Positions 1 through 15,036 of a stretch of DNA of 64,000 nt are shown here, in pieces. Source of the stretch: a virus (lineage: Duplodnaviria > Caudoviricetes). A program made the position numbers and the translations under genes. The DNA lies in IMG/VR virus record IMGVR_UViG_3300042139_000023; one strand, written 5' to 3'. A model generated the notes under the pieces. That model saw only the letters and a list, made by a program, of their open reading frames with translations. It ran no database searches and was not told the origin of the DNA. Numbering within the stretch: position 1 is the stretch's first letter; each line of letters starts with the position of its first letter.

Positions 1-197
1 GAGTAGCCGTTGTTCACGATGTTGACGGTGTTCTGGGTGCCACTGGTGACGGTGTGATGGATCATCACGCCATGCACGGCACCCCACGGTCCCTTGCTGT
101 TGCGGTTGTGGGTCTCCCAGTTGCCGACTTCGACAACCTCGACGCCTTCCGCCTTCAGAGCGGCCAGAAATCTGGCTGCGCTCATCGGTGTAGACAC
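1..197 (-). CDS. Endolysin, N-acetylmuramoyl-L-alanine amidase (Amidase_2), N-terminal part; runs off the window edge
   Basis: Manual translation from GTG at 197 (RBS GGAGGGAGG): MSTPMSAARFLAALKAEGVEVVEVGNWETHNRNSKGPWGAVHGVMIHHTVTSG, the typical N-terminus of Streptomyces amidases with the zinc-binding HHT motif. Confidence 0.88.
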   Translation of the reverse strand, partial: MSTPMSAARFLAALKAEGVEVVEVGNWETHNRNSKGPWGAVHGVMIHHTVTSGTQNTVNIVNNGY

Positions 198-299
198 GGG
201 TTCCTCCCTCCGTGTGATGGTCATAGCTTCGCACGAATCTACGAAGAAGCGACTCGACAACTTCCCGCTTTCCTGCAATACTGTTTCTAGGAAAGGGGA

Positions 300-968
300 T
301 TGACCGTGAACAAGAAGACCGTAGTGATCGCATCTGGGGCCGCTGGCATCATCCTGGCCGTCTCCGCGTGTGGTACCGACACCTACGACTACGAGGTTTC
401 CGGCCTCGTGCAGGGGCAGCAGGTCGACTACGACTGCCCCAACGAGCTGTCCATGGACGCCGTCGCGTTCGTGACCGGCAAGGGCGGCGGCGGAGGCAGG
501 AGCAGCAGCAAGAAGTCCTCCAGCGACAGCAGCAGCTCGGACTCCTCGGACTCCAGCGACAGCAGCAGCACCACCACGAACCGGCAGCAGAACCGCTCCT
601 CCGGCACGACGGCTTCGAAGGCGCCCTCCAAGGCTGCCTCGACCCCGGCCTCGAAGGCCCCGTCGACCAGCTCCGGAACGAACCAGCGCAGCTCCAGCCC
701 GAGCGCCGCGCCGCCCGTCAAGAACAAGGGCGTCAAGCTGAAGAAGAAGCCCGAGAAGCCGCAGAAGCTCAAGGGCAAGAAGCTCCCCAAGGTGAAGTAC
801 AAGTTCAAGCCGAAGGGCTGCGAGACGGAGTACGAGATCTTCGTCCTCGCCGACGACGGCTACCTGTACGAGCAGGACGTCCGCAAGGCCGACTACGACA
901 ACTGCGTGAAGGCCAAGATCCCGGCCGGGAAGAAGAACAAGCTCTTCCCGCTCTGCACCAAGGGCTGA
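300..968 (+). CDS. Lipoprotein with Ser-rich and Lys-rich low-complexity insert
   Basis: Basic N-terminus, hydrophobic stretch and lipobox VSAC; RBS AAAGGGGA; start TTG 300 or GTG 306. Confidence 0.8.
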   Translation: MTVNKKTVVIASGAAGIILAVSACGTDTYDYEVSGLVQGQQVDYDCPNELSMDAVAFVTGKGGGGGRSSSKKSSSDSSSSDSSDSSDSSSTTTNRQQNRSSGTTASKAPSKAASTPASKAPSTSSGTNQRSSSPSAAPPVKNKGVKLKKKPEKPQKLKGKKLPKVKYKFKPKGCETEYEIFVLADDGYLYEQDVRKADYDNCVKAKIPAGKKNKLFPLCTKG

Positions 969-1060
969 TGTCGTACGCGATCGAGTGGGTGGCCACCCTG
1001 GCTGGTTCCGGGGTGGCCGCTCGCGCGTTCCTGTTCCTGAAGGAGAGGGGAAGGCGTTGA
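968..1060 (+). CDS. Putative 30-aa membrane peptide (MSYAIEWVATLAGSGVAARAFLFLKERGRR)
   Basis: ATG overlaps the upstream stop (TGATG) and its stop overlaps the next start; hydrophobic core followed by basic tail. Confidence 0.4.
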   Translation: MSYAIEWVATLAGSGVAARAFLFLKERGRR

Positions 1061-1470
1061 GCTACACCGGATCGGTGAGCGGGGTGTTCACCATCGACCC
1101 GCCGCTCCCGTGGTCACAGATCAAGAACAGCCGGTTCTACCTGGACAACAAGCCCGACTCCCGGGACGACCCGAGCGTGGTTCTCGCGGTCGAGCGTTCC
1201 GAAGAGGAGACCGACACCGGCATCTCCACCGTCTTCACGTCGAGCGCGGCCATTCCGTGGCGCGAGTCCTTCGACTGTCGCGACCTGGAGAAGGACGTGA
1301 AGAAGCTGGTCGCCGAGATGACGGAGATCGACAGAACCGTTCAGGGCGTGATGGTGGTCGACGGCGAGTGGGCCGGTGACATCTGGCGCGTCGTCGCCGA
1401 CGAGGACGGGGTGCGCAGGGAGAACGCCCGCTTCGTGTGGCCCGACGGAACCGAAGTCCAGTTCAAGTGA
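1057..1470 (+). CDS. Actinophage hypothetical protein, DUF6205-like
   Basis: TTG start overlapping the previous stop; SYTGSVSGVFTIDPPLPWSQI pattern recalled for this family. Confidence 0.55.
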   Translation: MSYTGSVSGVFTIDPPLPWSQIKNSRFYLDNKPDSRDDPSVVLAVERSEEETDTGISTVFTSSAAIPWRESFDCRDLEKDVKKLVAEMTEIDRTVQGVMVVDGEWAGDIWRVVADEDGVRRENARFVWPDGTEVQFK

Positions 1471-1528
1471 GACCGCCTGGAGGGGCACGGCATCACGCCG
1501 TGCCCCTCTTTGGCGTGAAGGGAGACCG

Positions 1529-1813
1529 ATGAGGAACGACATGAGAACGATGCTCCGGACCGAGGTGTCGGAGTCCGTCAGGGCCCTTCTGGAGAAGCGG
1601 CGAAAAGACGTACTCGCCATGCTCGCTTCCTGTGGAGTGGACCCGATGGACATTCCGAGATGGCCGGAGATCTGGCGCGACGAGGAAGGGATCCACATCG
1701 ACCGGTACATGCGGACCGAAGACGGCAGACTTCGCCGAGACGACTTCGGGTTCATGGTCGAGGAGTCCGTCATCCAGCCGACGGTGATCCCCGACTGGAT
1801 CGCGTACGGCTGA
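1529..1813 (+). CDS. Hypothetical protein
   Basis: ATG 1529 with RBS AAGGGAG; GC3-biased codons; followed by a hairpin. Confidence 0.7.
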   Translation: MRNDMRTMLRTEVSESVRALLEKRRKDVLAMLASCGVDPMDIPRWPEIWRDEEGIHIDRYMRTEDGRLRRDDFGFMVEESVIQPTVIPDWIAYG

Positions 1814-1817
1814 ACGG

Positions 1818-1846
1818 AGGCCCGTCGGGAGACCGGCGGGCCTTTC
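1818..1846 (+). terminator. Intrinsic terminator
   Basis: Stem AGGCCCGTCGG / CCGGCGGGCCT with GAGA loop and T tail. Confidence 0.7.
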
Positions 1847-1859
1847 GTGTGCCATCAGC

Positions 1860-1972
1860 CTACCGTTCGGTAACTTTCCTTCGCCTCGAACCCGAAGAGA
1901 AGCTACCGAGAAGTAACAAGAATCGGGTCGGAAGACACCCGAATCCCGGAAGAAAAGCTACCGAAGGGTAAC
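1860..1972. repeat. Three copies of CTACCG-N4-GTAAC (1860-1874, 1903-1917, 1958-1972), probable operators
   Basis: Read directly in an intergenic, AT-richer segment. Confidence 0.7.
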
Positions 1973-2179
1973 TGACAGAACGGGTGAATCGGATGATTCG
2001 GGCTGTCCGTATCGACCACTTATGTCCTGCTGTAGCGTGTCGGAGATCCATAAAAAGTGGTCCGGTATGCCTGATTCGCAGGAGTTCATGGTGATTCGAG
2101 GAAGGCCAGAATCGCAACGAATCTGGACAAGGTGCCCCAGGAGGTGGCCTACCCGGGCGGTAGGCCATCGGGTAGGATC

Positions 2180-2189
2180 GGCCTAGGCC
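2180..2189. promoter_or_regulatory. GGCCTAGGCC palindrome, putative GntR operator
   Basis: Perfect 10-bp palindrome just upstream of the RBS of 2206; same motif recurs at other promoters. Confidence 0.6.
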
Positions 2190-2205
2190 GTTCGAAAGGA
2201 GGCAC

Positions 2206-2673
2206 ATGGACGCCCAATCGCAGCTAGAGGCAAGCAAGTTGGTCCTCAACTTGCCGTACTTCGAGCTGATCATCACCGGCTCCAGGGACTGGGCGGACCG
2301 CAGAGCGGTCCATCTGCCGCTGACCCGCCTGCTGAAACGCCACGGCCGCCTGCTCATCCGCAACGGAAAGAACAGGCGAGGCGCCGACAGGATCGTCAGC
2401 GACTGGTCCTCCCACTTCATCGACGTGCTGGTCCTGGAGAAGCCGTACCTGCCCGACTGGGACAGCCACGGCAACTACGCGGGCAACCTCCGCAACCAGG
2501 ACATGGTCGATGCCGGGGCCCAGGCCGTCATGGCGTGGGCCAACCCCTGCCGGAAGAACGGCCGCTGGTGCCCGCCGGGCGAACACCCCTCGCACGGCAC
2601 GGCCGACTGTGTCGAACGCGCCAGGAAGGCGAACATCCCCGTCTACTTCAGCCCCGAAGGGATGAGCTGGTAG
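2206..2673 (+). CDS. SLOG-family (DUF2493/YspA-like) protein
   Basis: IITGSRDW.D motif, GAD motif, GNLRNQDMVD motif; RBS AAGGAGG. Confidence 0.75.
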   Translation: MDAQSQLEASKLVLNLPYFELIITGSRDWADRRAVHLPLTRLLKRHGRLLIRNGKNRRGADRIVSDWSSHFIDVLVLEKPYLPDWDSHGNYAGNLRNQDMVDAGAQAVMAWANPCRKNGRWCPPGEHPSHGTADCVERARKANIPVYFSPEGMSW

Positions 2674-2733
2674 TTCGGCTCGAATTCCAGCGCGAACATC
2701 CGGAAGAACCTCGGAATCCAAGGAGATCGCACC

Positions 2734-3171
2734 ATGCAGAAGCTCACCACCGTCGCCCTGTCCACCGCGCTCGCGGGAGGGATGATGCTGACCGTGGCGC
2801 CCAGCGCCGATGCGGCCACCTCGATACGGGTGAAGGCCCTGAGTACCGCCGCCGCTCAGAAGGGGGACCCCTACAAGAGCGGCGCCGCTGGTCCGAACTA
2901 CTTCGACTGCTCGGGCCTGACGTACTACTCGTTCAAGAAGAACGGCAGGACGCTCCCCCGCACGGCCCAGGCCCAGTACAACAAGTCCACGAAGATCCCC
3001 GCGAGCAAGCGGACCAAGGGTGACCTGGTCTTCTTCGGCGGCGCGAACTCGATCTACCACGTCGGCATCTACGCGGGCAGCGGCTACATCTGGCACTCCC
3101 CGAAGCCCGGCAAGAAGGTCGAGAAGGTCAAGCTGTGGACCTCTTCGGTCCGGTACGGGCGGTTCGTCTGA
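2734..3171 (+). CDS. Secreted NlpC/P60 (C40) peptidoglycan endopeptidase
   Basis: Signal peptide ending ADA; GDPY..GAAGP..FDCSGL, GDLVFF and HVGIYAG motifs. Confidence 0.93.
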   Translation: MQKLTTVALSTALAGGMMLTVAPSADAATSIRVKALSTAAAQKGDPYKSGAAGPNYFDCSGLTYYSFKKNGRTLPRTAQAQYNKSTKIPASKRTKGDLVFFGGANSIYHVGIYAGSGYIWHSPKPGKKVEKVKLWTSSVRYGRFV

Positions 3172-3389
3172 TGGCTGCCTTCCTGGTCACGGTGCGACTC
3201 GCCAAGAACCCCGAGCACAACCCGCGCGAGAAGAAGACCGGCCCGTGTCCGGTCAACGGAAAGCCCTGCACGGACGTGACGGGCGAGCACCACACCTTCC
3301 TGGTCGAGCTGGACGACGTGGACGATGCGGAGGCGGCACGCGAGATCTACACGGGCCTCTACCGGGTGACCCGCATCGAGACCGTATGA
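3171..3389 (+). CDS. Hypothetical protein
   Basis: ATG coupled to the upstream stop (TGATG); 72 aa. Confidence 0.65.
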   Translation: MAAFLVTVRLAKNPEHNPREKKTGPCPVNGKPCTDVTGEHHTFLVELDDVDDAEAAREIYTGLYRVTRIETV

Positions 3390-3452
3390 CCGTGGGGATT
3401 CGCCTTGGATTCCAGGGCGAATCCCCGTAAGAACCCTCGGAATGGAGAGAAC

Positions 3453-3782
3453 GTGAGCTGGACCGGAGGAACGGAGATCTTCGAATCGGTCTCCGAGGCG
3501 ATCGAGCAGCGCGAGGAGGGCGAGATCTCCGGCAAGGAGCTGGTCGGCGCCCTCATCGAGGCGCTGAAGAAGCGGGGCTGGGACCCCACGGACTATGGCG
3601 TCGGCGGCCTCGCCGAGGACTCCATCATCCGTGAGGCCATGGCCGAGCACGGCAACGTGGAGAAGTGCGACGGCGAGCACCCCGTGCAGCCGTGGCAGTG
3701 CGAGGAAAGCAAGGGCCACTACCCGGCCACGAAGCACGAGGACTACCAGGGAAACACCTGGTCGGAAGAGGAGGAAGCGTGA
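3453..3782 (+). CDS. Hypothetical protein
   Basis: GTG start with RBS GGAGAG; coupled to the next gene. Confidence 0.7.
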   Translation: MSWTGGTEIFESVSEAIEQREEGEISGKELVGALIEALKKRGWDPTDYGVGGLAEDSIIREAMAEHGNVEKCDGEHPVQPWQCEESKGHYPATKHEDYQGNTWSEEEEA

Positions 3783-4048
3783 GCGAGATCCGCGCCCTGA
3801 ACAGCCTGGGCGACATCGACAGGAGCGCCCGGCTCGCCGTGGAGAAGAGCATGACCCCGGGGTGCCACATCGTCATCGGCGGCTTCGGCCCGGTGAAGAC
3901 GGGCTTCGGCGAGCGCATGACGGTACCGCTGGGGGACGCCCAGCTCGACGAGGACCCCGGCATCTTCGCCGAGCTGACCTACGAGCAGGCGCTGGACCTG
4001 AATGCGAAGCTGGCGGCGAAGCTGAACGAGCTGGCTTCCGAGCGCTGA
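3779..4048 (+). CDS. Hypothetical protein
   Basis: GTGA overlap with the upstream stop; GC3 bias. Confidence 0.7.
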   Translation: MSEIRALNSLGDIDRSARLAVEKSMTPGCHIVIGGFGPVKTGFGERMTVPLGDAQLDEDPGIFAELTYEQALDLNAKLAAKLNELASER

Positions 4049-4071
4049 GCAGCAGGAACGAGGAGAACGCG

Positions 4072-4281
4072 ATGAGCATGTACGAGAAGATGCTCTGTAC
4101 CGGCCCTTCGGGGTGCGGGCACCCCCGGCACGAGCACACCGGAACGCACGTGAAGGGCTCCCGGACGGCGTGCCGTCACAAGCTGGCGCAGGGCCGAGGG
4201 GTCTGCGCCTGCACCGAATTCAAGGAGGTTCGGGCTAATTCGTCCGTTTCGAAGCGGACTCCGGAAGCCGCTCGTGGCTGA
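4072..4281 (+). CDS. Small Cys/His-rich (possible zinc-binding) protein
   Basis: ATG with RBS GAGGAG; C-x4-CGH and CxC motifs. Confidence 0.6.
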   Translation: MSMYEKMLCTGPSGCGHPRHEHTGTHVKGSRTACRHKLAQGRGVCACTEFKEVRANSSVSKRTPEAARG

Positions 4282-4519
4282 GCGGCCGACCCCGCAGGAG
4301 GTCGAGACGAGCCGCCTGGCCAAGCTCCTGCTGGATCTGCACCGCTGCGAGCACGGCCGTCTGGAGGGGGACCCCTGTCTCTCGTGCGGCGGTCCGTCGG
4401 CGGGCAACCGCCTCATCCCACCAGGCACGCACATCGGGTACACCAGGTATGGGGACCGCATCGTGGTCCCCTCCTGGGAGGAGCACAACGACCCCAGAAA
4501 GTGGGTCCAAGGCCGCTGA
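4274..4519 (+). CDS. Actinophage hypothetical protein with RCEHGR..GD.C..C motif
   Basis: 81-aa ORF with Cys/His cluster. Confidence 0.65.
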   Translation: MAERPTPQEVETSRLAKLLLDLHRCEHGRLEGDPCLSCGGPSAGNRLIPPGTHIGYTRYGDRIVVPSWEEHNDPRKWVQGR

Positions 4520-4598
4520 AAAGTGGCCTGCAAGAACCAGCGAAAACGGCCCGCCGGAACGGCTCCGGCGGGCCACTCGGAGAGGAGATGAGGAGGTC

Positions 4599-6047
4599 AT
4601 GGCGATCCGCGTGAAGGTCCCGCAGGCAGCGGGAATCAGGCAGTCGATGGAGGTCCAGAACGGCTCCAAGGGCCTGGGCAGGATGTTCCGCAGGGGGCTG
4701 CACGGAAGCAAGAACTGGGTGCTGGAGCTGGACGAGAACGGCGAGCACCGCTCGGTGTGGGCCAAGGGTGGCCGGGCGTTCATCGTGCTCATCCCGGTCT
4801 GGGTGGTCCTGAGTGCGGCGACCGGCGGCCCGGAGCGGGGCGGCCACTCGACGAGCGTTCCGCAGGCGCTCGGCGCGGCTCTCCTTCTCACGGTGATCGG
4901 GCTGGCGGTGTTCTCCGCGCGTGAGCGGAAGCTGGGCCGCGAAGAGCCGTGGGTCACCGAGGGAGGCGACTCCAAGGGGATCACGGAAAGTGAGGATGGC
5001 GAGAACAAGACGCTCGTCGACCCCGCGCCGGAGAACTCCACGCAGATCCTCGAAAACCCGCAGGTCGAAGAGTCGGGTTCCGACGATGGGGCCGAACAGG
5101 AGATGGACGATTCGGAAGATTCGGTCGAAACCGAGCGATTCGAACAGCCGGATTTGCAGGAGCCGGTGCAGCAGGCCATTCCGTCCGAGGCGGAAACCCG
5201 CGTCATGACTGCGCCGGAGGCACCCACGACGGTGTTGCCGCAGGTCGTGCAGCAGGCCACTTCTGATGTCGCAGACCAGGACAAGTCGGGCCAGTCGTTC
5301 GAGGACATCGCCTCGGTGGCGAACGACTTTCGGACCGAAGCCTCGCAGCAGGCCAGTCAGGAACCGGCATATTCCCTGGTCAAGGACTCTGCGCCCGACA
5401 TGCAGGAGCCCGTGCAGCAGGCCACTCCCCAGTGGACGAAGCTGGACGTTTCCGGCGTCACCGAGGGTGATAACGGACTCATCCCTGACGAGCCCACCAC
5501 GCCCTTGCGGACCACCGTGCAGACGGCCTTGCACCAGAACCCCGATGCAAGCGAATCCGTGCAGGTCAGCCTGGAGAAGGAGCCCGTGCAGCAACCCTTG
5601 CAGGGGGAGTTGCAGGTCCAGTTCGCCCAGGCTGGGCCCTACCCGGCCGGGGAAGAGCCGGAGCACGAGGACTGGTGGGTGGTGGCACCCGACATCGAGC
5701 CCGCAGCGGAGGCGGAGGAAGTCGCCCTGGAGCCCGTTCAGGAAGATGTCGCGCCCGAGCCCGTCCCCGTCTTCGCGGAGGCCGCAGAAGCGGAGCAGGA
5801 GGCGTCTCAGGTTCCGGTCGGCCGTCACCCGATGGTCGTGCTCACCTACCTCGCCTCCCAGGCCCCGAAGTCCGGCTTCACGCCCGAGGAGAAGGAGGCG
5901 GCTCGCACGGCTGTCATCACGTGGCTGCACGGGGAGATCCAGCAGGGACACCTGAACCGCGCCGAAGGCGCTCGTGTTCTCGGCGTGGACGCCTCCACGG
6001 TCGGTCGCTGGCTGAGCGACCTGAACGACGACCCCTGGGCCGGGTGA
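4599..6047 (+). CDS. Membrane-anchored protein with acidic low-complexity linker and C-terminal HTH
   Basis: ATG 4599 with RBS AGGAGG; two hydrophobic segments near the N-terminus; C-terminal LNRAEGARVLGVDASTVGRWL. Confidence 0.75.
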   Translation: MAIRVKVPQAAGIRQSMEVQNGSKGLGRMFRRGLHGSKNWVLELDENGEHRSVWAKGGRAFIVLIPVWVVLSAATGGPERGGHSTSVPQALGAALLLTVIGLAVFSARERKLGREEPWVTEGGDSKGITESEDGENKTLVDPAPENSTQILENPQVEESGSDDGAEQEMDDSEDSVETERFEQPDLQEPVQQAIPSEAETRVMTAPEAPTTVLPQVVQQATSDVADQDKSGQSFEDIASVANDFRTEASQQASQEPAYSLVKDSAPDMQEPVQQATPQWTKLDVSGVTEGDNGLIPDEPTTPLRTTVQTALHQNPDASESVQVSLEKEPVQQPLQGELQVQFAQAGPYPAGEEPEHEDWWVVAPDIEPAAEAEEVALEPVQEDVAPEPVPVFAEAAEAEQEASQVPVGRHPMVVLTYLASQAPKSGFTPEEKEAARTAVITWLHGEIQQGHLNRAEGARVLGVDASTVGRWLSDLNDDPWAG

Positions 6048-6071
6048 CCAGGCCACACGAAATGGCCTACT

Positions 6072-6107
6072 CGAAGGGCCGCCAGACGATGTTCTGGCGG
6101 CCCTTCG
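6072..6107. terminator. 15-bp perfect hairpin, probable terminator
   Basis: CGAAGGGCCGCCAGA / TCTGGCGGCCCTTCG. Confidence 0.65.
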
Positions 6108-6150
6108 CCGTACGCTGATGCCCGACACGGATCACTGGAAAGGTGATGGC

Positions 6151-6582
6151 ATGAGCGAGAACGCCTACGACCGCAGCGCGCTGGGCCACGAGGCAGGAAA
6201 GCTGCTGGACGCCCTCCTGAAGCATGTGAACGAGATCGGGCGGGCCCAGGTGGCAACATCCGCCCTCCTGAAGGACAGCGGACTGACCCAGGGTGCCCTG
6301 GTGCGCGCCAGGGCGGAACTCACCCGGAACGGGCTGCTGCGAACGGAGCCGGGCTTCTCCTCTACCGGGCTGCGCGGGGCGAACGTCTACGTGCTGAACA
6401 TGACCGCGATCGAGCCCCCTTCCAAGGAGATTCTGGAAGACGAAACCGGACGAATCGAGGCAGACGATCCCGATGGTGCTGGTCACCAGGTTTCCGGAGA
6501 GGTTCCTGCCCCTTCCGGGCGGCATCGCAGCGAGCGGAAGGGCTTCCTTCGTGGCCTCTTCCGTGGGTCTCGTTCTTCCTGA
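6151..6582 (+). CDS. Winged-helix DNA-binding protein
   Basis: SALLKDSGLTQGALVRARAELTRNGLLRTE..ANVYVL pattern typical of wHTH domains. Confidence 0.65.
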   Translation: MSENAYDRSALGHEAGKLLDALLKHVNEIGRAQVATSALLKDSGLTQGALVRARAELTRNGLLRTEPGFSSTGLRGANVYVLNMTAIEPPSKEILEDETGRIEADDPDGAGHQVSGEVPAPSGRHRSERKGFLRGLFRGSRSS

Positions 6583-6750
6583 AGCACGGAAGGACTGCCG
6601 CCCTGTCGGAAGAAGCCGAAGAAGAGGTGGTTGTTCTCCACTCGAATCGGACGAATGAGGACACGACGGGGCGGCAGTTCGTGGCACGCTTCTCGAATCG
6701 CAGTGAATTCGGACAGAACGGACGACTTCCAGGATCCTGCCCTGGTTCGC

Positions 6751-6780
6751 TTGACACGGCCTAGGCCACGCTGGCACAGT
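6751..6780 (+). promoter_or_regulatory. Promoter of the spdB-like gene with GGCCTAGGCC operator in the spacer
   Basis: TTGACA (6751-6756), N18, CACAGT (6775-6780); palindrome at 6758-6767. Confidence 0.7.
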
Positions 6781-6845
6781 CATGCGTAACGCCCCCAAGC
6801 GAGGTTTCAGAAACCGGGGGTTTTCGGAAAGGGAGAAACCCAGAC

Positions 6846-8006
6846 ATGGACAAGACGGAAAACAACGAGAAGGTCGCGAAGGTCGACATCGACGAGGACG
6901 GTCCGAAGCGTTTCTCCGTTCTGGTTCTGATGGCGAGCATCCTCTCGATCGGCTCCCTCGCCTGGAGTACCTGGTCCTTCATCGACCTGTACAAGGTCGA
7001 CGCGCTCACCATCGACAAGCTGGGCGGGCTCAGCCTGATCTCCCTCTCGGCCGCCGCAACGATGGACGTCGTCTGGAGCGCGACGATGGTGGCCCAGTAC
7101 CAGGGCCAGAAGCTGATGGGGAAGCTGCCGAAGGTCAAGAAGTCCTTCGACTTCCTCCCGCTCATCGGGTGGATCGAGGCCCTGTTCGTCGCCGGACTGC
7201 TCGGCTACCACGGAACGACGATCGGCGGCGGCGCCGCAGGGTTCGCGGCGGTCCTCCCGGTCTTCACGAAGCTCACGTGGACGATGGCCCTGAACGGCCT
7301 GAAGGACCCGAGCGAACTGACCGACGAGGAGAAGGCCGAGATGGCGGCCGAGAAGCGGAAGTCGAAGCTCACCCGGGCCAAGGCCGACGCAACCCAGGAG
7401 CAGCATGCGGCCGACATGATCCTGAAGAACCGCGAGCACGAGGCGGCCCTGGCCGAGCAGCGGCGCCTGGCGGCCATCGAGCACGAGAAGGTCCAGGCCG
7501 AGATCGAGCGCAAGAAGCTGGAGCAGCAGGCCCAGTTCGAGCTGGAGAAGGCCCGGCTGGAGGGTGAGGCCGAGACCAAGCTGATGCGTCAGCAGCTCAA
7601 CGCGCGGCTCCAGATCGAGACCCTGCGCAGCCAGCAGGGCATCAGCCTGGAGCGCATGGACGCCGAGCAGGAGCTGCGCCTGCGGGCCCCGCTGGACCTC
7701 GGCTTCAACGTCATCCAGGGGCAGGTCTCCCGGCCGCAGCTCGCGAAGAGCAACGTCTCGTTCGAGGAGGAGGACGACGCGGAGGGCATCAGCCTGGACG
7801 GCCTGAACCTGACCGACGCCGAGCGCCGGAAGGTGAACCTGGCGGCCCGCTACTACGCCGCCGACGCGGCCGAGGGCGGCATCACCAAGGCCGCCTTCGC
7901 GAAGGCCAACCAGACGGGCGCCCCCCGGGTGACCGAGGCGACCACCGCCTTCCCGCTGGAGTGGTTCGTCGAGAACGGTCTCGCGAGCTGGATGAACCAG
8001 GGCTGA
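6846..8006 (+). CDS. spdB: SpdB-like plasmid spread protein (about four TM helices plus coiled coil)
   Basis: SLAWSTWSFIDL, DVVWSATMVAQYQG, PLIGW...LLGYHG, LPVFTKLTWTMAL and DPSELTDEE match the recalled pattern of Streptomyces plasmid SpdB proteins; long Glu/Gln/Arg coiled coil follows. Confidence 0.72.
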   Translation: MDKTENNEKVAKVDIDEDGPKRFSVLVLMASILSIGSLAWSTWSFIDLYKVDALTIDKLGGLSLISLSAAATMDVVWSATMVAQYQGQKLMGKLPKVKKSFDFLPLIGWIEALFVAGLLGYHGTTIGGGAAGFAAVLPVFTKLTWTMALNGLKDPSELTDEEKAEMAAEKRKSKLTRAKADATQEQHAADMILKNREHEAALAEQRRLAAIEHEKVQAEIERKKLEQQAQFELEKARLEGEAETKLMRQQLNARLQIETLRSQQGISLERMDAEQELRLRAPLDLGFNVIQGQVSRPQLAKSNVSFEEEDDAEGISLDGLNLTDAERRKVNLAARYYAADAAEGGITKAAFAKANQTGAPRVTEATTAFPLEWFVENGLASWMNQG

Positions 8007-8023
8007 CAAGCCCGCACGACAGA

Positions 8024-8056
8024 GAAGCCCCCGCCCCGGCGGGGGCTTCCTGTTTT
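8024..8056 (+). terminator. Intrinsic terminator
   Basis: GAAGCCCCCGCC / GGCGGGGGCTTC stem followed by CTGTTTT. Confidence 0.75.
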
Positions 8057-8105
8057 CCCCAACTTGCCTGTATTCTGGTTATGTTGAAGTGGAGAGGAGA
8101 ATGAC

Positions 8106-8420
8106 ATGGCGTGGCGAATCGAGGCATCCGGAGGAACCGGATCCGCCAATTACGTTGTGATCCAGCCGATGATGGACGACGACCCGGAGAGCGAAGTCCG
8201 GCACGCGCTCATCACCATCTCGCCGAAGGGCGGTCGCGAGCACCCGACGATTCCGATGCTTCCGCCGGGCGCCCTGTACCGGGATCGGCTCGGTATGGCG
8301 TATCGCATTCAGGAGGCAACCATCGTCGAGACAGGAACCGACGACGGTGAACACTCCATGTGGCGCTACGAGTACCTGGTCGCCTACAGCGCGACCCTTC
8401 CGCTCCGGCCCGTCTCATGA
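8106..8420 (+). CDS. Hypothetical protein
   Basis: ATG with RBS GAGGAG; 104 aa. Confidence 0.7.
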   Translation: MAWRIEASGGTGSANYVVIQPMMDDDPESEVRHALITISPKGGREHPTIPMLPPGALYRDRLGMAYRIQEATIVETGTDDGEHSMWRYEYLVAYSATLPLRPVS

Positions 8421-8626
8421 TGGAGAAGGTCGTCACCTGGGCCATCGCGAAGGCGGTCGAAGATGTTGACGACAGCGTGACCACGGCTGCCCTGATGGGC
8501 GCCGCACTGGATACCGCCACCTTCTCGGCGATCGGCGTACCGGCGACCGGGGCTGTGATCGCAGGGGCCGCCACGGGCGTGGGCCTGAACGTGGTACGCA
8601 AGCTGAGGAAGGGAGAAGGGGAATGA
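8417..8626 (+). CDS. Small Gly/Ala-rich membrane protein
   Basis: ATGA overlap; hydrophobic AIGVPATGAVIAGAATGVGL segment. Confidence 0.6.
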   Translation: MMEKVVTWAIAKAVEDVDDSVTTAALMGAALDTATFSAIGVPATGAVIAGAATGVGLNVVRKLRKGEGE

Positions 8627-9282
8627 CCGACTGGTGGAACACGTCCGCGCCGCGACAGGAGGGCGAGCCGGTTCGCGCTGAACCCGCTATCGGGTGGGAC
8701 CCGGAACCCATGCCGTCGATGCCCGCCTCTCCGCCCGAGCCTCCGGCCCAGCAGGAGGAGCCGGAAGCGCAGAAGCCGGATCGCCGCAAGAGCCTTCTCC
8801 TCGGTGCGGCCGGTGCTGCCGCCGTGGGGGTCCTGGTTTTCACCGTCATGCCGCACGACGGCTCGACTCCGGCCGACGTTCCCGGTGTGTCCGCATCATC
8901 GTCCGTCGGGGACTTCCCCCCTGCGGCCGGTGGCGGGCCCTCGGAAGGTGCACAGGACCGCGCTGAAGAATCCCGGGCACCCGCCCCGCAGAAGCCGAAG
9001 GTGGTCACCCTCTCTGCCACACCCAGTGGCTCCGGCAGCGTCGGCGCGATCGTGAAGCTGACGGTCGTGAACAACACCGACGAGGCCGTGGTCGTCATGT
9101 CGTCGATGGTGAAGGGTGACGGCCGCCCGGCGGTCATCGGAGAGGGCACGCTGGCGCCCGGCTCCCGGCGCGTAGAGCCCGGAGAGACGGCGACCGGAAC
9201 CGTGGAGTTCGCCACGAAGAAGGCGCCCGCCCAGGTGGCTCTCGTCGACCTCAGCGGGAACGTGGTGGCGGCCAGTGGCTGA
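8623..9282 (+). CDS. Single-pass membrane protein with extracellular Ig-like (DUF4352-like) domain
   Basis: TM segment LLLGAAGAAAVGVLVFTVM; C-terminal beta-rich VKLTVVNNT...VEPGETATGTVEF. Confidence 0.65.
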   Translation: MTDWWNTSAPRQEGEPVRAEPAIGWDPEPMPSMPASPPEPPAQQEEPEAQKPDRRKSLLLGAAGAAAVGVLVFTVMPHDGSTPADVPGVSASSSVGDFPPAAGGGPSEGAQDRAEESRAPAPQKPKVVTLSATPSGSGSVGAIVKLTVVNNTDEAVVVMSSMVKGDGRPAVIGEGTLAPGSRRVEPGETATGTVEFATKKAPAQVALVDLSGNVVAASG

Positions 9283-9994
9283 ACCCCTGCTGCACCGCCT
9301 TCCGTCGACCGGGAAGTACGACAAGAAGTACCAGGTGCACGGTCACGACCACCTGATCGTCGAGGCGTACTACTCCGACGCCGAAGACAGCAAGCCGGAG
9401 TTCGGGTGCTGGTGGGTGATCGACGCCCGCTTCACCGCCCTCGACCGGTACCGTCGGCAGATCGTCTTCTCCTCCACGTACCTCTCCGACATCCGGAGCT
9501 GGCTGAAGGCTGGAGGGGCGAGCCTGTGGGACCCCGAGAAGAGGAAGGCCGACAAGGACTGGAAGCCGATTCCCGAAGGGTGGTCCCCCGACGACAGCCG
9601 ACTGGAGGCGAAGCGTCGTACACCCTTCAGGCCGTTCGGCGAGAAGGGGTCACGGGCACACAGGTCGGCGCGCAGGCCCGAGGAGCCGGAGCCCAGCGAC
9701 TACCCGCTCTACCCAAGGGGCCTGACGGGCAAGAAGTACGCCGTCGTCCCCGGGTGGGTCACCTCCGTCAACGACGGTCAGCGGCACTGGATCGGATTCG
9801 GTGCACTCACCTGGCTGTACGGGGTTAATCCGGCCGAGTGCATCAAGGTCGACGACGAGACCGAACGTGGCTGGAACGACGACCTGCGGGCACATCTGAT
9901 CTGGCTGTATCCGCAACGCAGGCACGAGGACTACGAATCGATGAAGGAGGAGCTGGCCAGGGGCGAGGACGCCTTCAAGCTGATCGAGCCCTGA
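9275..9994 (+). CDS. Two-domain phage hypothetical protein
   Basis: 239-aa ORF; C-terminal KYAVVPGWVTSVNDGQRHWIG..L..LYGV pattern recalled from phage proteins. Confidence 0.7.
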   Translation: MAEPLLHRLPSTGKYDKKYQVHGHDHLIVEAYYSDAEDSKPEFGCWWVIDARFTALDRYRRQIVFSSTYLSDIRSWLKAGGASLWDPEKRKADKDWKPIPEGWSPDDSRLEAKRRTPFRPFGEKGSRAHRSARRPEEPEPSDYPLYPRGLTGKKYAVVPGWVTSVNDGQRHWIGFGALTWLYGVNPAECIKVDDETERGWNDDLRAHLIWLYPQRRHEDYESMKEELARGEDAFKLIEP

Positions 9995-10003
9995 GCATGC
10001 GAA

Positions 10004-10033
10004 AGCCCCCGTCGCACCGTTGCGACGGGGGCT
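10004..10033. terminator. Bidirectional terminator between convergent genes
   Basis: Perfect 13-bp stem AGCCCCCGTCGCA / TGCGACGGGGGCT. Confidence 0.75.
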
Positions 10034-10054
10034 CTGCACATCCGCATGGGGTCC

Positions 10055-10789
10055 TCACAGGGGCACGTGGAACGAGACCGGCCTGTTGCCCTCGCAGACC
10101 TTCACGGCGACCTCGACGACCTTGCCGTTGGCCAGGAGGACCCGACGCGCCGTCTGCGTGACGATCGCGTACGCGCCCTTCAGTTCCAGCAGCTCCCGCT
10201 CCCGGTCCGTCGCCAGACGCGACGTGATGACGGGGATCAGGTCCTTCTGCCGGGAGCCCATGCGTTCGGCCGCCAGCTCCCGCGAACCGCGCGGGGTGGA
10301 CTCGGCCATCGCCAGCTCGGGCGTCACGGCCGTCACCTCGGGCGGGTAGTACGAGTGTCCGGTGGCGACCGGCTTGCCGTCGATCTTGTTCAGGCGCTCC
10401 CGGTACACGACCCCCTCGCCGGGCTCGACGCCCAGCGCGGAAGCGATGCTGGCCGGGCACGGCACCGTCTCCACCCGCAGGATCTCCGAGGTCTCTCGGG
10501 CGCCCAGCGCCTTGCCGCTCGCCGCGTAGTTCCCGACGCGGTCCTGGACCGTCGCCGTGCGTCCCGAGATGTCCGCCACGACCGGCGGCCGGTTGCCGCT
10601 GGACGGCTCCAGGACCCCTTCCGCCGTCAGCAGCTCCACGACCTTGTCGATGGTGACGCGCGACGTCTTGTGGGTCTTGGCGAGCCTGCGGCGCGACTCC
10701 AGCGGGGTACCCGGCGCCAGATCACCAGAGGTGATCCTGGATCGGTAATGTGCCGCAATGGCACGGTACTTGGGAATCTGCTCGCTCAC
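10055..10789 (-). CDS. GntR-family (HutC/UTRA) repressor, KorA/KorSA/TraR type
   Basis: GTG 10789 with RBS GAGGAG; PKYRAIAAHYRSRITSGDLAPGTPLESRRRLAKTHKTSRVTIDK wHTH plus UTRA motifs (VVYRERL, SYYP, RLATDRERELL). Confidence 0.9.
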   Translation of the reverse strand: MSEQIPKYRAIAAHYRSRITSGDLAPGTPLESRRRLAKTHKTSRVTIDKVVELLTAEGVLEPSSGNRPPVVADISGRTATVQDRVGNYAASGKALGARETSEILRVETVPCPASIASALGVEPGEGVVYRERLNKIDGKPVATGHSYYPPEVTAVTPELAMAESTPRGSRELAAERMGSRQKDLIPVITSRLATDRERELLELKGAYAIVTQTARRVLLANGKVVEVAVKVCEGNRPVSFHVPL

Positions 10790-10808
10790 TTTTTCTCCTC
10801 GCGTTCGC

Positions 10809-10837
10809 TTGTGGCCTAGGCCGTATTGTGTCATGCT
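10809..10837. promoter_or_regulatory. Divergent promoter region with GGCCTAGGCC operator (10813-10822)
   Basis: Palindrome 24 bp upstream of the gntR start; possible rightward TTGTGG-N17-CATGCT promoter overlaps it. Confidence 0.65.
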
Positions 10838-10876
10838 GGACTCCACAACGCCAGCAGGGACCGAAGAGAGGGCGAC

Positions 10877-11041
10877 ATGGAAGGTAACGGGGAGGTTCAG
10901 GAGCCGGTTGTGCCGCAACCTCAGCACGTGCCGGAGGCTTCTCTGGGGCAGCTTTCTGACTTCGCTGCCAACCAGGATATCGCCCGATTGGAGGCAACCG
11001 TAGAGGCCAACATCGGACTAGCTTCCGACGGAAAGCCGTAA
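10877..11041 (+). CDS. Small acidic hypothetical protein
   Basis: ATG 10877 with RBS GAGAGGG; 54 aa; first gene of the divergent unit. Confidence 0.45.
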   Translation: MEGNGEVQEPVVPQPQHVPEASLGQLSDFAANQDIARLEATVEANIGLASDGKP

Positions 11042-11056
11042 CGCGGAAGGAGAAAC

Positions 11057-12019
11057 GTGGCGACGAAGGCAGCCATTCCGCCGAAGCCGAAGACGGCCCC
11101 CACCGTGCACCTCAAGGGCCAGAAGCGGAAGCCGCCACGGACCCTGAAGGGCGACCTCAAGGCACTGAAGGGGAAGCTCGGTTCGGCCACCACTCGGTGG
11201 ACCGAGAGTCAGGGCAAGGCGGAAGAGAAGAAGGAGAAGGTACGCCAGGAGGCCGAGAAGATCCTGGCCCCCGTCAAGGAAAAGGCCGCAGAGGAGAAGA
11301 AGCTCGCGGCCGAAGTGATGAAGCCCGTTCAGGCGGCTGCCGCCGCCATCAAGAACGGGTTGGATCCGGCCAACGGAAAGACCCGGCCGTACGTCACTTC
11401 GTTCATGATCTCCTCGGTGATGTCGTGGGCTGTCGGACCGCAGATTCTGACCGCTCTGTACGAGCGAATCCGCTTCGGCACCTCGACCACCGGATGGGGA
11501 ATCCTGAACGGCCCTGGCAGGTGGTTCAGGGACACGATCGGCATGGCGTACGAGTCGGACCGGCTCGGCAGCCTGATCTGGGCAGCGATCATGGGGCTCA
11601 CCCCCATGATCCTGATGTTCACCCGGAACCAGGTCGCCGGATACCTGGCCCAGAGCACGTACCGGGGGCGGATGGTCGCCTTCAGCATCAAGTGGCTGAC
11701 CCGTTCGGCCTGGCTGGTTCCGGTCCTGTTCTTCGTGGGGGTCTCGTACCCCGACGAGGTGACGGCGATCTTCGGTTCGCCGTGGACCTTCCAGATGTGG
11801 CAGTTCTGGGTCGCCGGTCTGTTCTGCATGGCGTTCTACGCGACCATGTGGGTCTTCGACCGGATCGAACGGCTCAACCGCGAGCGGTCGGCCATGTCGG
11901 AGGAGGAGCGCGAGAAGTCCCAGAGCATGGGGCCGGGCATCTTCCACGCCGTACTCATGATCCCGCTGGCGTCGATCGTCACGGGGATCCTGCTCTACGC
12001 ACCGGGCGCCGCCTGGTGA
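11057..12019 (+). CDS. Integral membrane protein with Lys/Ala-rich cytoplasmic N-terminus
   Basis: RBS GAAGGAG; several hydrophobic helices in the C-terminal two thirds. Confidence 0.8.
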   Translation: MATKAAIPPKPKTAPTVHLKGQKRKPPRTLKGDLKALKGKLGSATTRWTESQGKAEEKKEKVRQEAEKILAPVKEKAAEEKKLAAEVMKPVQAAAAAIKNGLDPANGKTRPYVTSFMISSVMSWAVGPQILTALYERIRFGTSTTGWGILNGPGRWFRDTIGMAYESDRLGSLIWAAIMGLTPMILMFTRNQVAGYLAQSTYRGRMVAFSIKWLTRSAWLVPVLFFVGVSYPDEVTAIFGSPWTFQMWQFWVAGLFCMAFYATMWVFDRIERLNRERSAMSEEEREKSQSMGPGIFHAVLMIPLASIVTGILLYAPGAAW

Positions 12020-12244
12020 TGCACAAGGGCCTCCGCTGCCGTGTGGCAGCCCAGCTACCGCTGGAAGCCGGTTCGCATCCGGCCGGAGGTACGAAGCGGA
12101 CGAACGAGCCGCTTGGAAAGGGGACGAGTCGTGTTCCAGAAGGACGACGACCTCGACGGGCTGCCGGTACTGAAGCCCGCCGGTCCCGGCCGGTGAGTCT
12201 GTGGGGCCGCTGGAGGGCGGCCCCACAGGGAAGGTGAGGGAAAA

Positions 12245-12823
12245 GTGATTCTGGCACTCACGCAGCAGCAGCAGATCGAGGTTCCGGAGAATTCGTGGAT
12301 CGGTCACACCACGATGGCAGGCTTCGGAATCATCCTGCTGGTGCTCTCGTTCCTCTGCATCAAGGGGAACAAGAAGGGTCAGCAGATGTTCCTCTGGGGC
12401 GGGCTGACCAAGGCGCTGATGACCAAGGCCGTGCAGCAGCCGACCAGCCGCATGATGACGAAGGTCCACGGAGGTCCGAGCGAAGGGTTCGACTGGCGGT
12501 CCGCAATGACATTCCTCGTGGGAATGTGGGCCATGACGTCGATCGTCAGCTCGACCGGTGGGTTCGTCGTCGACCTGGTCGACTGGTTCCAGGGTCTGGT
12601 CATGGCGCTGGCCGACTGGCCGGTCCTGTCCGACATCGGAGCCGGAGGCATCTGCCTCTTCCTCGGGTTCCTCGCGATGCGGAACAAGGATGACGACAAG
12701 CAGGATCTGATGTACGGCGCCATCTGCGGGTTCTTCTTCCCGCTCGGCGGCGGCACCTGGGCCGAGATCACACTCCAGATCGGCAACTGGATCCCGCAGC
12801 TCATGCAGAGCCCGTTCCACTGA
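12245..12823 (+). CDS. Multi-pass membrane protein
   Basis: At least four hydrophobic segments; RBS GAGGGA. Confidence 0.75.
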   Translation: MILALTQQQQIEVPENSWIGHTTMAGFGIILLVLSFLCIKGNKKGQQMFLWGGLTKALMTKAVQQPTSRMMTKVHGGPSEGFDWRSAMTFLVGMWAMTSIVSSTGGFVVDLVDWFQGLVMALADWPVLSDIGAGGICLFLGFLAMRNKDDDKQDLMYGAICGFFFPLGGGTWAEITLQIGNWIPQLMQSPFH

Positions 12824-12836
12824 GGTGGGCGGTTCC

Positions 12837-12875
12837 AACGGCCGGGCCCTTCGCGGGTCCGGCCGTTCGGCTTTT
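12837..12875 (+). terminator. Intrinsic terminator
   Basis: AACGGCCGGGCCC / GGGTCCGGCCGTT stem followed by CGGCTTTT. Confidence 0.7.
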
Positions 12876-12896
12876 CAACTCCAGTACAGGTTCACC

Positions 12897-12926
12897 TTGT
12901 TGGCTGGCCTAGGTCAATGTTAGAGT
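12897..12926 (+). promoter_or_regulatory. HrdB-type promoter of the cell-wall hydrolase operon with GGCCTAGGTC in the spacer
   Basis: TTGTTG (12897-12902), N18, TAGAGT (12921-12926); operator variant at 12906-12915. Confidence 0.7.
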
Positions 12927-12948
12927 GGAGCCCGGAGAAGGGAGGAAC

Positions 12949-13587
12949 GTGATGCGCAGGGCAGGCGGAGTATTCGTCGGCGTGTTTCTGGCAGTTGGGG
13001 CAGTTCAGGCCGTCACCGGTTTCATTCCGGCGGTCCCGTCTGCCGCGTCCGTCGCGGCGCCTCCGAAGCAGGAGGCCACCGGGGACTACAAGTTCACGGG
13101 CACCTCTGCCCCGATCCGGCCCGGCTCGGTCCCGAAGAAGCGCTGGGAAGAGCTGATCAACAAGTGGGGCAACAAGTGCAAGACGTTGACCCCCGCCCTC
13201 CTGGCGGCCCAGCTCGATCAGGAGAGCATGGGATTCAAGCCTGAAGTCATCGACGGACGACTGGACTCCCCGGCCTCCGCCAAGGGCATGGCCCAGTTCA
13301 TCGACGGCACGTGGGCCACCGAGGGGATCGACGCAAACGGGGACGGCAAGCGCAACAAGTACGACCCCGAGGACGCCATCCCCTCGGCCGCGACGCTGGA
13401 CTGCAAGCTCGCGAACGGCCTGAAGGACATACCTGGCCCCACCTGGAAGAACATGCTCGCCGGATACAACGCGGGCGGCTTCCGGGTGAAGCAGTACAAC
13501 GGCGTCCCGCCGTGCTCGTTCGCCAGGTGCGAGACCTACAACTACGTGAAGTTCATCGAGCGGAAGACGAGGAAGTACGAGCAGTGA
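12949..13587 (+). CDS. Secreted lytic transglycosylase (SLT)
   Basis: N-terminal hydrophobic/signal segment; LLAAQLDQES (catalytic Glu), AKGMAQF..GTW, YDPEDAI, AGYNAG, ETYNYV motifs. Confidence 0.9.
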   Translation: MMRRAGGVFVGVFLAVGAVQAVTGFIPAVPSAASVAAPPKQEATGDYKFTGTSAPIRPGSVPKKRWEELINKWGNKCKTLTPALLAAQLDQESMGFKPEVIDGRLDSPASAKGMAQFIDGTWATEGIDANGDGKRNKYDPEDAIPSAATLDCKLANGLKDIPGPTWKNMLAGYNAGGFRVKQYNGVPPCSFARCETYNYVKFIERKTRKYEQ

Positions 13588-14183
13588 ACCGGACTCAGCG
13601 AGCGGCCCTGGCGGTCGCCTCCGTGGCGCTGCTCGTGCCCGTCACGTCATCCTGTGCCGCGCTCAACGCGGCGCCCATCTCGAACGCCACGGCGAACCCC
13701 AACCCGGAGATCGAGAAGATCAACTGGTACTCGCCCGAGCAGCGCGCCAAGGAGGCGAAGCGACAGGAGCGGGACACCAAGGTCTCCAGTTCCCGGTCGG
13801 GCGACGCGGCGGCCGTGGCCATCGCGTACGCCCGCACGAAGATCGGAGTTCCCTACCTCTGGGGCGGCACCGGCACCAGCGCCCAGGGCGGTCGCTTCGA
13901 CTGCTCCGGCCTGACGCAGGCCGCGTACGCCAAGGCGGGGATCAGGATCCCTCGGGTCGCGAACGACCAGTACAACACGACCAGCAATCATCCATCCTGG
14001 GATGAACTGGAGCCGGGTGACCTGGTCTTCTTCGGCCAGAAGGGGAATTCGCGCTCGATTCATCACGTCGGCATCTACATCGGTGGCGGCAAGATGCTGC
14101 ACGCGCCACGGACCGGAACGAAGATCCGCGTCAACGACGTGCACTACATGAACGACTACTTCGGAGCGACGAGGGTGGCCTGA
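13584..14183 (+). CDS. NlpC/P60 peptidoglycan endopeptidase, lipoprotein
   Basis: GTGA overlap; lipobox VTSSC; IGVPYLWGG, FDCSGLTQAAY, GDLVFF, HHVGIY motifs. Confidence 0.92.
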   Translation: MNRTQRAALAVASVALLVPVTSSCAALNAAPISNATANPNPEIEKINWYSPEQRAKEAKRQERDTKVSSSRSGDAAAVAIAYARTKIGVPYLWGGTGTSAQGGRFDCSGLTQAAYAKAGIRIPRVANDQYNTTSNHPSWDELEPGDLVFFGQKGNSRSIHHVGIYIGGGKMLHAPRTGTKIRVNDVHYMNDYFGATRVA

Positions 14184-14479
14184 TGGCTGAACACACGGTG
14201 CGCGTATGGCGCAGGACAAGGCCCCTCACGGGTGACCCGACCCGGGTCATCGGCCTGGAGCGGGACGAGATCACCCTTGAGGCGCCGAGCTTGAAGTCGG
14301 CCCTGGAGCAGGTGGTCGACGCCGAGTACAAGGAGGGCGGCAAGCAGCTCCGGGTGTACGCCCAGATCGAGCGGCCCGAAGGAGGTCACCTCGGGATCGG
14401 CGATTACACCCTCTGCGAGCTGGCTTTCGCGGAAGACGAGAAGCGCCGGGCGGAGCAGTCCGGCGACATCGAGAAGTAA
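14183..14479 (+). CDS. Hypothetical protein
   Basis: Coupled start (TGATG); 98 aa. Confidence 0.7.
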   Translation: MAEHTVRVWRRTRPLTGDPTRVIGLERDEITLEAPSLKSALEQVVDAEYKEGGKQLRVYAQIERPEGGHLGIGDYTLCELAFAEDEKRRAEQSGDIEK

Positions 14480-14496
14480 CGGAAACGGAGAAACAC

Positions 14497-14967
14497 GTGG
14501 AATCCAGTCTCGGAACGCCGGACGACATGCTGCGCCAGTCGATGAAGCAGCTCGGCATCGACCGTGAGACGGCCATCTCCCTGGCCGTGAAAGGCTTCGA
14601 GGCGGCCCTGCGGGTCGAGGGCGAGGTGACCGAGGAGAAGGTGGACCGCAAGCTGGCCGAACTCTTCGTCGCCGAGAGCCGCAACCGGTCCCCCTGGTTC
14701 GTGACGCTGATGCAGGCGCACTACCGCAAGAACCTCCCCGCCTGGGAGAAGCTGCACGACGACGCGGTGGAGCGCGGCCAGGACCCGGCGACGAAGATGT
14801 CCATCACCGAGAGCGTGATCATGGAGATGGCGCAGGAACGCGTCGAGCTGGTGAAGCTCGCCAAGCAGGGCAAGTCGATCGAGGAGATCACTGAGGCGGC
14901 CTTCGCCTTCGACGACGCGCGGCCCGACGGCGAGCTGTACCTGCTCCTCGCGCGACAGATGGGCTGA
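14497..14967 (+). CDS. Hypothetical helical protein
   Basis: GTG start with RBS GGAG; 156 aa; strong GC3 bias. Confidence 0.7.
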   Translation: MESSLGTPDDMLRQSMKQLGIDRETAISLAVKGFEAALRVEGEVTEEKVDRKLAELFVAESRNRSPWFVTLMQAHYRKNLPAWEKLHDDAVERGQDPATKMSITESVIMEMAQERVELVKLAKQGKSIEEITEAAFAFDDARPDGELYLLLARQMG

Positions 14968-14979
14968 CGGAGAACCCCG

Positions 14980-15010
14980 GACGGGCGGCCGATGTGAACG
15001 GCCGCCCGTC
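14980..15010. terminator. Hairpin, probable terminator
   Basis: GACGGGCGGCCG / CGGCCGCCCGTC perfect 12-bp stem. Confidence 0.55.
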
Positions 15011-15036
15011 GTCACATCTCGGAAGGGAAGAAGGGC

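Follow-up and report, generated by a model that had tools for sequence, protein, structure and literature searches.

The 64,000-nucleotide stretch of viral DNA analysed here (the window) corresponds to bases 69046-133045, read on the minus strand, in the 168,372-bp virus record IMGVR_UViG_3300042139_000023. It carries repeated copies of a 12-bp palindrome, YGRCCTAGGYCR, which is probably the operator of a HutC-type GntR regulator encoded by the phage itself (10055-10789, minus strand); binding of the palindrome by this protein, repression and control by an effector are what we infer. The first 14 kb of the window are 88% identical to Streptomyces phage Frankenweenie and ~77% identical to Kela, JustBecause, Satis, Kradal and others, and by its sequence the source virus is a large Streptomyces phage of cluster BM (~168 kb), predicted to be lytic. 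About 80% of the genes in this cluster have no known function, and to our knowledge nothing is known of its transcription. Genes were called with a crude caller based on GC content at third codon positions, which reproduces the Frankenweenie annotation. Cluster BM phages are prolate-headed siphoviruses with genomes of 184-200 kb (PMC6687918, PMC10652959), and Frankenweenie, the closest relative, has been described as having "no integrase or repressor", with a temperate lifestyle unlikely (PMC10652959).

The initial annotation of this DNA reported a 10-mer palindrome at four sites, GGCCTAGGCC at 2180-2189, 6758-6767 and 10813-10822, and GGCCTAGGTC at 12906-12915. All four lie at those coordinates, and an identical 14-mer, ACGGCCTAGGCCAC at 6756-6769, recurs in the opposite orientation as the reverse complement of 10811-10824. 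The sites are therefore real, but the unit and its range were drawn too narrowly: only 4 of 15 copies fall inside the region first described, the other 11 lying outside it, and alignment of all copies gives as the true unit the 12-mer YGRCCTAGGYCR, built on a 10-mer core, GRCCTAGGYC. Half-site position -6, which was outside the search pattern used, is occupied by a pyrimidine without exception, in all 30 half-sites of this genome and all 120 of the four phages together. Position -5 is G in every copy, -4 is G or A, and -3 is C in all 120 half-sites of the four phages, while the four-phage alignment leaves position -7 and everything further outward unconstrained.

Copies of the core are far more frequent than chance would allow, with 15 matches to GRCCTAGGYC in the genome against 0.1-1.0 expected under Markov models of orders 1-4. 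In the window, 12 matches are found at up to one mismatch (2.9 expected), a number reached by none of 100 shuffles. Fourteen of the fifteen copies are intergenic, in a genome of which 13% is intergenic (P = 7e-12), and the fifteenth is probably intergenic as well, because it stands 16 nt ahead of a strong ribosome-binding site and ATG. No other palindrome is enriched in the intergenic DNA of the genome. The motif is present in 14 of ~121 intergenic gaps of at least 50 nt, and thus marks a subset of promoter regions. The tetranucleotide CTAG at its centre is otherwise scarce, as the initial annotation had remarked: the window has 11 copies where dinucleotide shuffles predict ~85, and the genome has 42 where trinucleotide frequencies predict ~90, alongside 1387 copies of GATC. 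The motif family accounts for 6 of the 11 CTAG in the window and 17 of the 42 in the genome (forty per cent). A control using the reversed pattern (6 against 5) is misleading, since reversal of the word creates GATC, a tetranucleotide that outnumbers CTAG 33-fold, and the Markov expectations were used in its place. The motif is real and under selection.

Conservation among the relatives of the phage points the same way. Frankenweenie, Kela, Satis and JustBecause have exactly 15 copies each, and when every site was compared in Frankenweenie, Kela and Satis, at ~77-88% identity, all 15 proved orthologous. Column by column, 13-15 of the 15 sites are identical in all four genomes within the core, against 3-9 of 15 in the flanks. 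The sole changes in the core are between G and A at -4 and its mirror position, the R and Y of the consensus; in Satis one half of site 3 is altered, and in Kela the halves of site 8 are swapped. The adjacent -10-like hexamers drift (TAGAGT, TAGGCT or TACTGT; TAGTGT or TAGACT) and remain TANNNT.

The candidate reader of the motif is a protein of 244 amino acids, whose gene (10055-10789) is the sole minus-strand gene in its block. It combines a GntR winged helix-turn-helix (wHTH; PF00392, residues 8-65, scoring 30.2 bits where 27 is the cut-off) with a UTRA domain (PF07702, residues 96-236, scoring 59.3 bits where 23.8 is the cut-off), and its matches in the Protein Data Bank are the SauR-like 3eet, DasR and NagR, full-length to 3eet and NagR. 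By these sequence criteria the regulator is a member of the HutC subfamily of the GntR family, as the initial annotation had implied. An ungapped alignment to the DNA-binding domain of NagR (offset 4) places R34, R44 and G65 opposite NagR R38, R48 and G69, the residues which in the NagR-DNA structure read G-5, G-4 and the minor groove (PMC4333415). NagR binds GTGG half-sites six bases apart, within GTGGTCTAGACCAC (PMC4333415), and the same two guanines are conserved in the dre sites of DasR (PMC4918961). The phage motif has this geometry, a six-base spacer with TA at its centre and a G-R step flanking it on both sides, in agreement with the earlier description of it as a palindrome of the form bound by HutC proteins. 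Set against the HutC operator consensus GT-M-TA-K-AC, with 4 nt between GT and AC (PMC4494728), it reads R-C-C-TA-G-G-Y; it agrees in spacing, in the TA at the centre, and in having C for M and G for K, but every copy has C in place of the T of GT. Four BM phages whose proteins are ~80% identical overall share one and the same recognition helix, TSRVTIDKV. The counterparts of the regulator in Satis and JustBecause, two phages that can be grown on S. lividans, are gp101 and gp98.

One copy of the motif belongs to the regulator gene itself. Site 5, tGGCCTAGGCCg at 10812-10823, lies in a divergent region 23 nt upstream of the regulator's own GTG, and autoregulation is typical of the family (PMC8584621). 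A block running from ~13 nt before to 5 nt after the core of this site, in the orientation of the GntR gene, is invariant even in viral contig L087, where the GntR protein is 71% identical. On the other side of the site are a small open reading frame (10910-11041) and a membrane gene (11057-12019), both on the plus strand. In the UTRA domain, R130, R132, SYYP (146-149) and SRELA (169-173) are conserved across a clade at ~40% identity, which suggests a functional pocket shared with plasmid Kor-type proteins.

Several observations weigh against assigning the motif to this protein. Position -3 is C, where the canonical HutC base is T, and NagR touches the spacer bases through the backbone only, which leaves the invariant CCTAGG without an explanation; the basic residues R33, R35, K38, H40 and K41, absent from NagR, are candidates for contacting the G that pairs with C-3. 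The GntR gene's own promoter is weak or unclear (CACAAT or ATGACA). In an alignment read by hand, N134 stands in place of DasR R144, one of two phosphate-binding arginines; a ligand of the glucosamine-6-phosphate (GlcN-6-P) type is therefore not to be assumed, and ligand control as a whole is uncertain. The GntR protein also has company: Frankenweenie annotates at least three other helix-turn-helix (HTH) proteins and an HU-like protein, and there are weak Pfam signals of Cro/C1 type. Any dimeric HTH protein could read a palindrome, and Cro/C1-type dimers read short ones, so the sites might belong to a homologue of the Cro/C1-like HTH proteins gp240, gp243 or gp164 of Frankenweenie, with GntR only one of the regulated genes. 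We consider this unlikely. No copy of the motif lies near those HTH genes, the only such regulator gene with a copy nearby being that of GntR; the spacing and central TA are those of HutC and dre sites, and GntR retains both of the arginines that read the G-G step. Moreover, if another protein took this palindrome, no second enriched palindrome would remain for GntR.

Less likely again is that a host regulator, DasR or another HutC protein of Streptomyces, reads the sites and couples the phage promoters to host physiology. The initial annotation had offered DasR as a link between these genes and N-acetylglucosamine (GlcNAc) or cell-wall status. The core of the motif does depart from the dre core GGTCTAGACC at only two positions, placed symmetrically; the G-G step is also what DasR reads (PMC4918961), and native dre sites are degenerate. 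Yet the T that dre sites carry at -3, the base to be expected there under selection for reading by DasR, occurs in 0 of 120 half-sites, where C is invariant. Position -7, read by the wing of NagR, is not conserved, and none of the 15 phage sites comes within two mismatches of the 12-mer dre core TGGTCTAGACCA. In five Streptomyces genomes, which are not those of the actual hosts, the phage 12-mer occurs 1-3 times per 7-8 Mb, making it ~300-fold rarer per base than in the phage, and none of these host copies adjoins a GntR homologue. A sizeable host regulon using the 12-mer is therefore unlikely.

Where the motif sits within promoters bears on whether it is an operator at all. A conserved TANNNT lies upstream of the core at seven sites, at offsets of -14, -10, -7 and -6 (four sites at -6), so that the motif spans the region from -10 to the start. 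At five sites the conserved TANNNT is instead downstream, at +11, +12, +15, +19 and +22, and the motif falls over the -35 element or the spacer. Clear -35 hexamers (TTGACA, TTGACG, TTGCGA, TTGACC) are present at several sites. This variable placement inside core promoters fits a repressor operator and not a promoter element held in fixed phase. It is very improbable that the motif serves a modified polymerase as a core-promoter or start-site element, forms an RNA hairpin in 5' leaders, or is a leftover of the avoidance of CCTAGG as a restriction site. Many copies do directly follow a -10-like hexamer and would be transcribed, and CTAG and CCTAGG are strongly avoided elsewhere in the genome. 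But the offset from the conserved -10 varies from -14 to +22; at five or more sites the motif is upstream of the -10 and would be absent from the RNA; with a stem of 3 bp and a loop of 4 nt it makes a poor hairpin; and avoidance accounts for the rarity of the word and not for 15 intergenic copies that are conserved and have fixed flanks. Comparison of four metatranscriptome or RNA runs with window positions 1-16000 gave short, low-depth contigs only, with no starts or ends and with DNA carry-over possible, and the runs were not used.

If the palindrome is the operator of the phage GntR protein, a GntR dimer would place one wHTH on each half-site, where two conserved arginines would read G(-5) and R(-4) at both flanks of the six-base CCTAGG, in the manner of NagR and DasR at dre sites. 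The phage promoters resemble those of sigma-70 and would be used by the host RNA polymerase. Every copy overlaps the core promoter, either the -35 and spacer or the stretch from -10 to the start, and a bound dimer should therefore block that polymerase. GntR would in this way shut down its own gene together with ~15 transcription units in all parts of the phage, setting the level or the timing of their expression. The units concerned would be those of the SLOG and NlpC genes, a membrane protein, the SLT and NlpC genes, a tRNA/Ro-like region, replication genes, and eight units in a long arm of small genes. The UTRA domain might then release or tighten repression in response to a small molecule. 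The earlier proposal that GntR represses itself and local genes thus agrees with a HutC-type GntR protein that has a putative site upstream of its own gene, but a local circuit of four sites does not describe the system, which has 15 conserved sites and one weak one spread over the whole phage. In the literature we found no paper with the motif in this context, and none on a regulon of a phage GntR/UTRA protein.

The four sites in the first part of the window stand in the promoter contexts first ascribed to them. Site 3, cGGCCTAGGCCg at 2179-2190, lies 1 nt past a TAGGAT -10-like hexamer (2173-2178). It precedes the SLOG gene's ATG (2206) by 16 nt and stands ahead of the ribosome-binding site of that gene, AGGAGG. 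It is kept in Frankenweenie and Kela; in Satis it reads GACCTAGGCC, with TATGCT as the -10. The first gene after it encodes a SLOG (YAcAr) protein (2206-2673, plus strand), followed by an NlpC/P60 hydrolase (2734-3171, plus strand). Site 4, cGGCCTAGGCCa at 6757-6768, is in the 18-nt spacer between TTGACA (6751-6756) and CACAGT (6775-6780), upstream of a gene for a protein of 386 amino acids (6846-8006, plus strand). The core and TTGACA are identical in four phages, and the upstream flank diverges. This gene had been labelled spdB, a name without support, as the protein has no Pfam hit and BLAST shows no resemblance to a plasmid DUF2637 protein; in the Frankenweenie annotation it is a membrane protein. 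Near the start of gntR is site 5, described above. Site 6, tGGCCTAGGTCa at 12905-12916, is in the spacer of TTGTTG (12897-12902)-N18-TAGAGT (12921-12926), upstream of genes for an SLT transglycosylase (12952-13587, plus strand) and an NlpC/P60 protein (13584-14183, plus strand). In relatives its -10 is TAGAGT, TAGGCT or TACTGT, always TANNNT, and the core is fixed. Pfam confirms the SLOG, SLT and NlpC/P60 labels given earlier. Between sites 5 and 6, the Frankenweenie annotation has a tRNA-SeC(tca) at the place corresponding to window 12041-12196; a search of window 1-16000 with ARAGORN detected no tRNA.

The remaining 11 copies include one upstream of the tRNA/Ro-like RNA region, one upstream of a block running to a helicase and a SpoT-like gene, one in a divergent gap near the terminase, and eight within the long arm, which is made up of small unknown genes on one strand. 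Two of the words in the window that differ from the motif by one mismatch were compared with the relatives. The first, GGCCTAGGCT at 26216-26225, lies over the -35 zone of a promoter with an extended -10, TGgTAGAGT; both its mismatch and the promoter are retained in Frankenweenie and Satis, and it may be a weak sixteenth operator. The second, TGCCTAGGCC at 32010-32019, is within coding sequence. It is present in Frankenweenie, Satis has no counterpart CCTAGG, and it is probably non-functional.

Some features outside the window, given here in window-frame coordinates, accompany the operators or resemble them. At sites 12 and 13 (~110220-110262 and ~116990-117030) the -35 hexamers, TTGACG and TTGCGA, are in the loops of GC-rich hairpins that resemble terminators of the preceding unit, and are followed by the -10 and then the operator. 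These compact terminator-promoter-operator cassettes are conserved in four phages. After site 10 (~97007-97060, locus L001, minus strand) a leader of ~50 nt is nearly identical in four phages and contains a 7-bp GCGGCCG/CGGCCGC hairpin whose loop is variable; an Rfam search of two operator-bearing loci, this leader included, gave no match. Three more palindrome-like words with CTAG occur at ~86849, ~98484 and ~99792, GCCCTAGGCG once and GCCCTAGGGT twice, each preceded by a ...GAG(C)GGGAG(A/G)C context, and Frankenweenie and Satis likewise have three extra CCTAGG in the long arm. They look like a different element and not the operator, and are possibly part of structured RNAs. Finally, of all 12-mers in the genome only TGGTCTACACCA, at 95904, comes as close as one mismatch to the dre core; it could be a genuine DasR site or a product of chance.

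Taken as operators of one protein, the copies of the 12-mer would provide a first regulatory map of the BM phages, with 15-16 promoters and one candidate master regulator. Were the UTRA domain to bind a metabolite, phage gene expression would be tied to host physiology through a module derived from conjugative plasmids. The 12-mer, orthogonal in being near-absent from Streptomyces, and the promoter-operator cassettes could together serve as a tight, host-neutral switch for Streptomyces engineering. It is possible, albeit doubtful, that a phage without an integrase took over a ligand-sensing HutC repressor of the plasmid Kor type and set its operator on ~15 promoters, including most of the presumed early-arm units, so that a host metabolite gates the lytic programme. 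Infection might then be silent in non-growing mycelium or spores, in a reversible carrier-like state, and be released upon arrival of the effector, giving a small-molecule decision switch to a phage annotated without a repressor (PMC10652959).

The nearest relatives of the regulator beyond cluster BM are GntR genes on small Streptomyces plasmids and on ZL12-like phage-plasmids, at 39-45% identity (41-45% over the full length for those on plasmids). A scan of cellular genome contigs found no close GntR homologue, and a profile scan gave at most 46% identity, mostly on small contigs or plasmids. BM phage proteins that are 71-98% identical keep R34, R44 and the site. In contrast to the phage protein, the plasmid and ZL12-like homologues keep the first arginine and have Q, N or H at position 44, and the palindromes that precede their own genes are different ones, of the GCGCTAGTACTAGCGC kind. 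In a 42% homologue, from a viral contig of 151 kb, the two arginines are replaced by Q and M, and the upstream sequence is different again. This pattern is what a clade of self-regulating repressors would show if operators changed along with the recognition residues, the co-variation being loose and short of proof. Perfect palindromes upstream of homologues, of the type GCGCTA-GTAC-TAGCGC or AGCGCTACTAGTAGCGCT, were noted at L034 (4860-4900), L035 (4875-4905), L036 (3893-3912) and, upstream of 3001, in L090 and L091, and are candidate operators of a Kor-like clade. The initial annotation had compared the phage genes to a kil/kor circuit. Homology to plasmid GntR genes, at 41-45% identity, and a site upstream of the regulator's own gene fit the kor half of that comparison; no kil, tra or spd gene was identified. 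For the large or "ATP-binding" genes next to gntR on the plasmids, Pfam returned no family, and a link to TraB is not shown.

The closest characterised systems include those of DasR in Streptomyces and NagR/YvoA in Bacillus, with their dre sites. The proteins have the same wHTH and UTRA domains and the same two arginines and wing glycine, and the sites have the same G-G/R step at -5/-4, the six-base spacer and the central CTAG. There too the sites overlap promoters and the protein is a repressor, a role that is proposed here. The phage spacer is CCTAGG and not TCTAGA, conservation does not extend to -7, and A can occur at -4. DasR and NagR are only distant relatives of the phage protein (E ~1e-8 over the DNA-binding domain and part of the UTRA domain), in which one phosphate-binding arginine is apparently replaced, so that GlcN-6-P or GlcNAc-6-phosphate is not implied as its effector. 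It is also encoded by a phage predicted to be lytic, and its proposed targets are phage genes.

By analogy, the phage protein may resemble in role the Kor/TraR-type GntR repressors of Streptomyces conjugative plasmids and of AICEs, the integrative and conjugative elements of actinomycetes (KorSA of pSAM2, SCO3932), which are HutC-type, autoregulated, central repressors of a mobile element. KorSA and SCO3932 have few targets, whereas 15-16 sites are spread here across a virus of ~170-200 kb. In the arrangement of its sites the phage recalls the stoperators of cluster A mycobacteriophages, read by the L5 gp71 repressor, where a short site of 12-13 bp is repeated at many intergenic places. Stoperators are asymmetric, are oriented with transcription, are read by the immunity repressor of a temperate phage and partly block elongation. 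The sites described here, by contrast, are palindromic and lie at promoters, and their candidate reader is a HutC protein in a phage predicted to be lytic.

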